32,000 bases of DNA, taken from the NCBI GenBank assembly GCA_963699255.1, contig OY969425.1, forward strand, positions 480,001-512,000. The letters run 5' to 3'. Below the pieces are notes generated by a model. That model was not told where the DNA came from, did not search any database, and worked only from the letters and a program-made list of their open reading frames with translations. Positions 21,636 to 21,724 of the stretch are shown here, piece by piece. How positions within the stretch are numbered: position 1 is the stretch's first letter; the number at the start of each line of letters is the position of its first letter. Source of the DNA: an uncultured bacterium (GTDB lineage Bacteria; Margulisbacteria; WOR-1; CAVSGV01). Position numbers and translations under genes: made by a program.

Positions 21636-21724
21636 GCTATCAACGAATGAGGTAACGAATAAACGAATGGATGTAGTAAAAGATAAGGACTTTATTCGTT
21701 GATTCGCTGGGATTCGTTGATAGC
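21636..21724. repeat. ORF-less palindromic element, sibling of 16596-17225
   Basis: GCTATCAACGAAT (21636-21648) and ATTCGTTGATAGC (21712-21724) form a perfect 13-bp inverted repeat. Internal (A/T)AACGAAT octamers are mirrored by ATTCG(T/C)TG. The loop is about 20 nt. Confidence 0.8.

Follow-up and report, generated by a model that had tools for sequence, protein, structure and literature searches.

We lean towards reading the 89-nt hairpin at positions 21636-21724 of the window (the whole 32,000-nt stretch of DNA analysed here, i.e. bases 480001-512000 of one 1.77-Mb contig in the genome labelled G000) as a REPIN/MITE-like element that is non-autonomous and belongs to a family of nuclease cassettes with hairpin arms; once the operon is transcribed, it would also form an RNA stem of the REP/IVS type. 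The 33-base unit from which it is built recurs in three phyla; the element family thus has the appearance of miniature mobile DNA of an undescribed type, and not of a terminator or of a palindrome that arose by chance.

The hairpin is made up of a 33-35-nt unit in two copies, inverted relative to each other and 19 nt apart, and lies between two genes of the same orientation. Its parts and neighbors are as follows, with gene maps derived from simple ORF rules:

18231-21629, + strand: upstream gene, SprA-like barrel protein of 1132 aa, ending in a stop codon 6 nt ahead of the hairpin
21636-21670, + strand: left unit, A flavour; GCTATC, then AACGAAT at 21642-21648, 21654-21660 and 21662-21668 (unit alignment; nhmmer match at genome 501636-501670, E 7e-7)
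21671-21689, no strand: inter-unit spacer with a predicted 14-nt terminal loop and no ORF (sequence and fold)
21690-21724, - strand: right unit, A flavour, inverted; words at 21694-21700, 21702-21708 (AGCGAAT variant) and 21712-21718, then GATAGC at 21719-21724 (nhmmer match at genome 501724-501692, E 1.7e-6)
21751-22233, + strand: downstream gene, small exported protein, 160 aa; the 26 nt from the hairpin to its start include a purine-rich ribosome-binding stretch

The original prediction, which was made from the sequence of this stretch, had described a perfect 13-bp inverted repeat at the ends of this element, and the repeat is indeed there: positions 21636-21648 and 21712-21724 (GCTATCAACGAAT and ATTCGTTGATAGC) are separated by 63 nt. 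The inner words are paired as well, as the left arm contains two further copies of AACGAAT that are mirrored in the right arm, one of them as ATTCGCT. With RNAfold, the region 21626-21740 yields a single hairpin of about 30 pairs with an energy of -32 kcal/mol, compared with a mean of -16.7 +/- 2.7 for shuffled sequences (z -5.75; 0 of 200 shuffles as good). Two details had to be revised: the repeated core, previously taken for an octamer, is the 7-nt word AACGRAT in the unit alignment, and the supposed 20-nt loop is a spacer of 19 nt, within which the predicted terminal loop spans 14 nt.

When all copies in the genome are aligned, the unit of 33-35 nt reads GCTATC, AACGRAT, 3-5 nt, (A)ACGRAY, 1 nt, (A)ACGRAT and a purine-rich tail. 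Its words are thus direct repeats behind GCTATC, and an internal palindrome is absent. In this genome, the R base is identical across all three words of a unit, which is either of an A flavour (CGAAT) or of a G flavour (CGGAT). The sequence GCTATCAACGRAT is found three times in the window (16596 on the + strand, 21636 on the + strand and 21712 on the - strand), where 0.19 occurrences are expected and none of 100 shuffles reaches three. Two of these occurrences belong to the hairpin, and the third opens a gene-bearing cassette at 16596-17226, located 4.4 kb upstream:

16596-16666, + strand: left arm, two tandem G-flavour units (AACGGAT); it starts 4 nt past the stop codon of the PorV-like gene
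16687-17187, + strand: GxxExxY / PDDEXK_3 gene, the sole copy in the genome (PF13366 1e-30; TIGR04256 1.6e-31)
17193-17226, - strand: right arm, a single G-flavour unit in inverted orientation with GACAGG at its end; the NHL gene starts 16 nt further on

The two elements had been related to each other by their first 10 nt, which they do have in common; yet the likeness is not limited to these, but extends to the whole architecture of the unit. The proposal that the window holds a filled (GxxExxY) and an empty form of one element family is supported; the arms of both are built from the same unit. Two further relationships were considered and rejected. A derivation of the hairpin loop from the start of the GxxExxY gene was discarded on account of a resemblance (12 of 21) that is too weak, and the small gene behind the hairpin is not taken as an orthologue of the gene behind the cassette in G009, as their resemblance is limited to the signal peptides.

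A search of the genome by nhmmer, using an HMM made from the units, yields 13 clear units at seven loci and one decayed hairpin, i.e. eight loci in two distant regions (genome coordinates):

473223: tandem of a G and an A unit that directly follows the stop codon of a histidine-kinase gene
478478-478562: gene-less hairpin, left arm decayed
496596 / 497226: GxxExxY cassette
501636-501724: gene-less hairpin, window 21636-21724
1068471: A-G tandem
1070113: solo A unit
1074010: A-G tandem
1202918-1202994: decayed hairpin

A genome-wide count of the motif, as suggested in the original prediction, thus gives eight loci in this genome, to which many other genomes can be added. In five of the eight, the upstream gene has the same orientation and its stop codon lies at most 6 nt from the start of the locus, a placement that is likewise visible in other genomes. 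Four of the eight lie within the surface-protein region at 473-502 kb. Copy numbers are low, with about 5-13 units per genome. At the copies in G000, G005 and G021, no flanking direct repeat was found that would represent a target-site duplication; the flanks of one copy merely extend the palindrome. Adjoining the A-G array at 1068471, we also observed a repeat of about 150-200 nt with a hairpin CCCGAAAAAA...TTTTTTCGGG (genome 1068172-1068400, - strand), which has no Rfam match and appears again at 1091700-1091860 (+ strand), directly behind a paralogous barrel gene.

This paralogous gene belongs to a second PorV-like / NHL / SprA-like barrel operon (genome 1086500-1091654), whose barrel protein is 85% identical to that in the window, and which provides a natural control for insertions. 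Its junction between the PorV-like and the NHL gene measures 30 nt and is devoid of a cassette; as both of its flanks can be aligned, the cassette of about 640 nt represents a clean insertion or deletion. Behind the barrel gene, the homology between the paralogues passes through the stop codon and stops 1-2 nt before the GCTATC of the hairpin. The spacer in the empty PorV-to-NHL junction (ATCGATCTCGATAGCAG; L075:1225-1262, cf. window 16591-16596 / 17226-17243) reads ...CTCGATAGCAG... and resembles the unit terminus ATTCGTTGATAGC; judging from this resemblance, it may be the scar or footprint of a lost cassette, or a chance similarity.

The same picture emerges from other genomes. Behind 11 orthologous barrel genes in relatives (40-80% identity), the downstream spacers are unrelated and contain no AACGRAT hairpin. 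A search of metagenome contigs for strain-level variants of the 3' end of the barrel gene gave no match. Unrelated orthologous spacers, together with a motif that occurs nowhere else in the genome, had been named in advance as signs of chance similarity or local duplication. The spacers do differ at these 11 junctions, but the motif is far from unique, so this objection to an element family fails.

The distribution of the family extends well beyond this genome. The 13-mer is present in 23 of 146 Margulisiibacteriota genomes, most of them incomplete MAGs in which 'not found' does not equal absent, with 48 matches outside G000 vs 5 for a reversed control; single matches in distant families sit within genes and look like chance. 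Full units recur in about ten other Margulisiibacteriota, for instance as solo copies, tandem arrays and gene-less hairpins in G001, G004, G005, G015, G021, G027, G126 and G127. Their neighbors in other genomes include purD, CBS/DJ-1, ruvA, proB-proA and ribF. In G126 and G127, which represent two genera, a copy is common to the same gene junction, from which it follows that some copies are retained for long, and this could mean a host function.

With one genome per GTDB species, the full unit pattern gives 35 exact-match stretches, where an estimated 0.3 or so would be expected by chance (based on about 1.2e12 positions and on a pattern with 21 fixed positions, 4 two-fold positions and 15 combinations of spacing). 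Twelve of these stretches come from Margulisiibacteriota assemblies, 22 from Chloroflexota (Caldilineaceae, Anaerolineae, Chloroflexia, Oscillochloris) and one from an Armatimonadota chromosome. Gene-less hairpins directly behind stop codons are formed here as well, and one Caldilineaceae assembly contains an element of about 190 nt with these arms, whose copies lie in unrelated flanks.

Some of these loci exhibit further features. At G027:C63, positions 3830-5130, four successive spacers each contain an AACGGAT hairpin, with right arms grown to 6-8 words; alternating with these hairpins is a second repeated module, about 120 nt in length, with a terminator-like hairpin at its end. At G127:C64 (about 2545-2600), a G+C-rich palindrome, CCTGCCTGCCGGCAGGCAGG, is inserted within an AACGAAT unit; further copies are seen close to Y1 transposase and GxxExxY genes of several relatives (L061, L080, L081 and L083), which makes it another small dispersed palindrome.

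Within this family, the words are associated with one clade of GxxExxY proteins. In every relative of the protein that we examined at 48-72% identity (seven loci), ACGRAT words lie beside the gene:

G005: 72% identity; ACGRAT words beside the gene
L130: 67% identity; words partly decayed
G015 / L129: 62-65% identity; ACGRAT words beside the gene
G009: 58% identity; ACGRAT words beside the gene
L134: 55% identity; within a proB-proA operon
Candidatus Chloroploca (L132): 48% identity; at least five tandem modules, each containing an ACGAAT unit of three words

GxxExxY genes of at most 44% identity are accompanied by other words (CAGGATT, various xCGAATx, GCTAATT, CCCGAAA and others). Given that unconstrained DNA would be randomised at such protein divergence, the words must be under selection, and the simplest agent to select them would be the protein with which they travel. 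In an alignment of the relatives, the GxxExxY residues as well as D72 and E82-x-K84, which make up the D...ExK nuclease motif, are invariant; a search of the PDB gave no sequence relative of the protein. Other results speak against this link. G021 (99% complete), G027 and G127 have well-preserved units and hairpins; the first two give no GxxExxY match at E <= 1e-10, and the sole match in G127 is 32% identical. A GxxExxY gene lies within the fetched 8 kb at only one of 23 Chloroflexota or Armatimonadota loci. We know of no transposase activity in the GxxExxY PD-(D/E)XK family.

The original prediction had offered terminators as one alternative, which falls away: a terminator scan finds nothing terminator-like at 21636-21740, where the stem is followed by CATAATAACAG and a T-run is absent. 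Similarly, a promoter scan finds no promoter-like site within the hairpin, and Rfam 15, rRNA included, has no match at gathering score in the window, L001 and L002. The ends of the element, inspected by eye, do not fit the GTTRRRY / RYYYAAC core sites of integron attC, which we consequently rejected as a candidate. A RAYT-type Y1 transposase was also ruled out as the mobiliser of the AACGRAT units. The sole PF01797 gene (Y1, IS200/RAYT-type; genome 1290815-1291165, L077 and L086) is flanked by REP-like palindromes of its own, the small GGAACCGCGAC...GTCGCAGGTTC, and not by AACGRAT units; the Y1 genes of relatives also lie between similar small palindromes, and this gene and its palindromes suggest that the phylum also contains a classical system of the REP-RAYT type, separate from the AACGRAT family. 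The assignment to a REP/MITE-like family, which the prediction had likewise put forward, is accordingly upheld in part. In its favor are the singlets and doublets, the inverted repeats, the absence from the paralogous and the 11 orthologous junctions and the unrelated flanks, whereas the lack of a target-site duplication and of a known transposase, and a Y1 gene with different palindromes, speak against it.

For the mechanism, we envisage that the AACGRAT words are the recognition sites of this GxxExxY nuclease subfamily, which would act on the units as DNA, plausibly on an extruded hairpin or cruciform. Such action would spread or remove gene-bearing and gene-less copies, which would end up directly behind stop codons. 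In the operon transcript, a copy would fold into a stem of about 30 pairs, probably resembling those of REP/BIME elements or IVSs. This RNA stem could then serve as a barrier to 3' exonucleases or as an RNase III site, and would separate the message of the barrel gene from the decayed cassettes downstream. An RNase III gene is present in this genome, and in the Coxiella IVS this enzyme cuts a stem with tandem heptamers (PMC4990558).

It is also conceivable, if rather unlikely, that the hairpin is operon punctuation at the RNA level, i.e. an intercistronic stabiliser or RNase III site kept by the host, with no mobility as DNA and a link to the nuclease that reflects shared sequence ancestry only. 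The strong stem (-32 kcal/mol, z -5.75) and its position, with a stop codon 6 nt upstream and the next start 26 nt downstream, are in line with this, and so are the RNase III gene of this genome and the cutting of heptamer-containing IVS stems by this enzyme (PMC4990558). Likewise, 15 of 24 pairs at the R positions of hairpins are Watson-Crick pairs and 2 are G:T wobbles, with the remaining 7 unpaired. Yet the solo and tandem units, which cannot form a stem, retain the words and the GCTATC end, and pairing alone leaves the conservation of 33 nt across three phyla unexplained. Moreover, the paralogous operon and the 11 orthologous junctions manage without a hairpin, and while the hairpin partners in G000 match in flavour, those in G021 tolerate A-C mismatches at R. 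A strict base-pair covariation of the A and G flavours is rejected by these mismatches, so that local copying is the likelier source of the matching flavours in G000. As R pairing is violated in G021 and solo units keep their words too, it seems that word identity, and not only pairing, is conserved.

Less probable still is that the AACGRAT units are operator arrays, bound by a regulator that could be the GxxExxY protein itself or a partner of the HisKA_7TM two-component systems, and that would control surface-protein and kinase genes. In G000, units do lie directly behind or before a receiver gene and paralogous kinase genes of the HisKA_7TM-GAF type (473223, 1070113 and 1074010), with similar arrangements in G005 and L130, and these kinase-adjacent copies hint at a regulatory role. 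Half of the eight loci fall into the surface-protein region, and the words, with their degenerate position and fixed spacing, are reminiscent of protein-binding sites. However, units elsewhere are found beside the unrelated genes named above, arrays grow to 6-8 tandem words, hairpins cluster in successive spacers in G027, and most copies lie behind stop codons and not in promoter regions; in addition, the receiver protein adjoining the arrays is without a DNA-binding domain. Finally, the two copies in the window are a mere 4.4 kb apart in one operon, as might be expected from chance or a one-off duplication in the absence of any element family. This we regard as refuted by the eight loci in two distant genome regions and by the same unit in about ten other Margulisiibacteriota, in Chloroflexota and in Armatimonadota.

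The AACGRAT family appears alongside many other intergenic arrays of 7-nt words in this genome (e.g. genome 434825-434886, 722186-722254, 1014424-1014511 and 1191110-1191203), many of which are paired into gene-less hairpins. Tandem arrays are mostly of period 7: there are 96 such arrays (three or more copies), whereas periods 5 and 10 account for 2 and 4 arrays, respectively. Dozens of gene-less hairpins are built from such words, numbers that, obtained by folding intergenic DNA on a crude gene map that over-calls coding sequence (90.6%), are lower bounds. Furthermore, ten genes for four-helix-bundle proteins (PF05635, '23S rRNA IVS protein') lie, in nearly all cases, between an upstream array of 7-8-nt words and an inverted array downstream, with a word that differs per locus; the word families GAGATGY, AACAATK, AAGGCNN and ACAAATY, found between genes, also flank these ten. 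A four-helix-bundle ORF had been envisaged as an alternative loop content of the AACGRAT family, but the four-helix genes here sit between arms of other words. One PF05635 gene is located in the window itself (15234-15647), with weak inverted arms of 26 nt at 15232-15257 and 15679-15704 that are 77% complementary and contain heptamers of the CAGTGGA / CAGTTAA type; these arms overlap in part with coding sequence, namely the 5' end of this same gene and the part of the PorV-like gene that encodes its signal peptide.

We also observed a sigma-54-like motif, TGGYA-N7-TTGCT, with correct GG-to-GC spacing, which closely precedes the left arm in many of the four-helix and GxxExxY cassettes, both here and in relatives (genome 182480-182520, 676990-677330, 716340-716380 and 1426300-1426400, as well as the upstream regions of L052-L073). 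An rpoN gene is present at genome 976862-977308, and the cassettes may, as far as these motifs indicate, have their own sigma-54 promoters.

To our knowledge, the GxxExxY and four-helix '23S rRNA IVS' proteins are abundant and sporadic, with no known function, and the repeated descriptions of intergenic heptamer repeats offer no mechanism for them. Against this background, a broader proposal is possible, which we put forward tentatively: GxxExxY proteins (TIGR04256 / PF13366) might act as sequence-specific nucleases for mobile hairpins of a class not recognised so far, in which each clade has its own 7-nt word in the end arrays and gene-less hairpins are REPIN-like passengers. If true, this would show what a very large family of proteins, so far without a known role, does and, together with the four-helix IVS proteins, would explain intergenic heptamer repeats across bacterial phyla. 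The family described here offers a compact test case, comprising one nuclease-family gene, one defined 33-nt three-word unit, gene-less copies in the same genome, and a unit that is kept in Margulisiibacteriota, Chloroflexota and Armatimonadota. Should the protein bind or cut its own words, this would be a new route for small palindromic DNA to spread and to shape operon transcripts. For genome annotation, such hairpins within operons should not be read by default as terminators or regulatory sites.

REP/BIME elements and REPINs are reportedly mobilised by RAYT (Y1) transposases in E. coli and Pseudomonas. They share with the elements described here a unit of about 35 nt that occurs as singlets and as inverted, hairpin-forming doublets, a strictly intergenic location, often just behind stop codons inside operons, and a gene-bearing copy between inverted units, in the way that RAYT genes lie between their REPs. 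The units themselves are different: a REP is an imperfect palindrome with a conserved 5' tetranucleotide, whereas the AACGRAT unit is not palindromic and consists of three direct 7-nt words behind a fixed hexamer. Furthermore, the flanked gene encodes a GxxExxY protein of the PD-(D/E)XK fold instead of a Y1 transposase, and there are about ten copies per genome instead of hundreds. The elements also resemble MITEs, in that terminal inverted repeats (13 nt perfect, about 30 pairs overall) enclose a small non-coding core, a gene (GxxExxY, with an intact D...ExK motif) is found in a longer relative that shares these ends, and copies are present or absent between homologous sites and lie in unrelated flanks. 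Unlike MITEs, they have no target-site duplication and no recognised transposase, and solo units, i.e. single ends, are common.

A further parallel is found in the ORF-containing 23S rRNA IVSs of Coxiella burnetii and Leptospira, in which a small ORF, from a sporadic family with no known function, is enclosed by a long stem of inverted repeats that contains tandem heptamers (PMC4990558); in the Coxiella IVS, tandem GACAGAT heptamers form part of a stem that is cut by RNase III (PMC4990558). By contrast, the hairpin at 21636-21724 is located between two genes of a protein-coding operon and not in rRNA, and has no ORF, while its sibling carries GxxExxY and not a four-helix S23p/IVP protein. Lastly, the STRR repeats of cyanobacteria are intergenic heptamer repeats of unknown function. 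The same holds for the intergenic TAACTGA heptamer repeats of Beggiatoaceae, Cyanobacteria and Bacteroidetes (PMC4679880). Like these repeats, the family described here has 7-nt words near gene ends and a patchy occurrence across phyla that suggests horizontal spread; its AACGRAT words, however, are spaced rather than strictly tandem, and belong to a fixed three-word unit with a terminal hexamer, which is hairpin-paired and tied to one protein clade.
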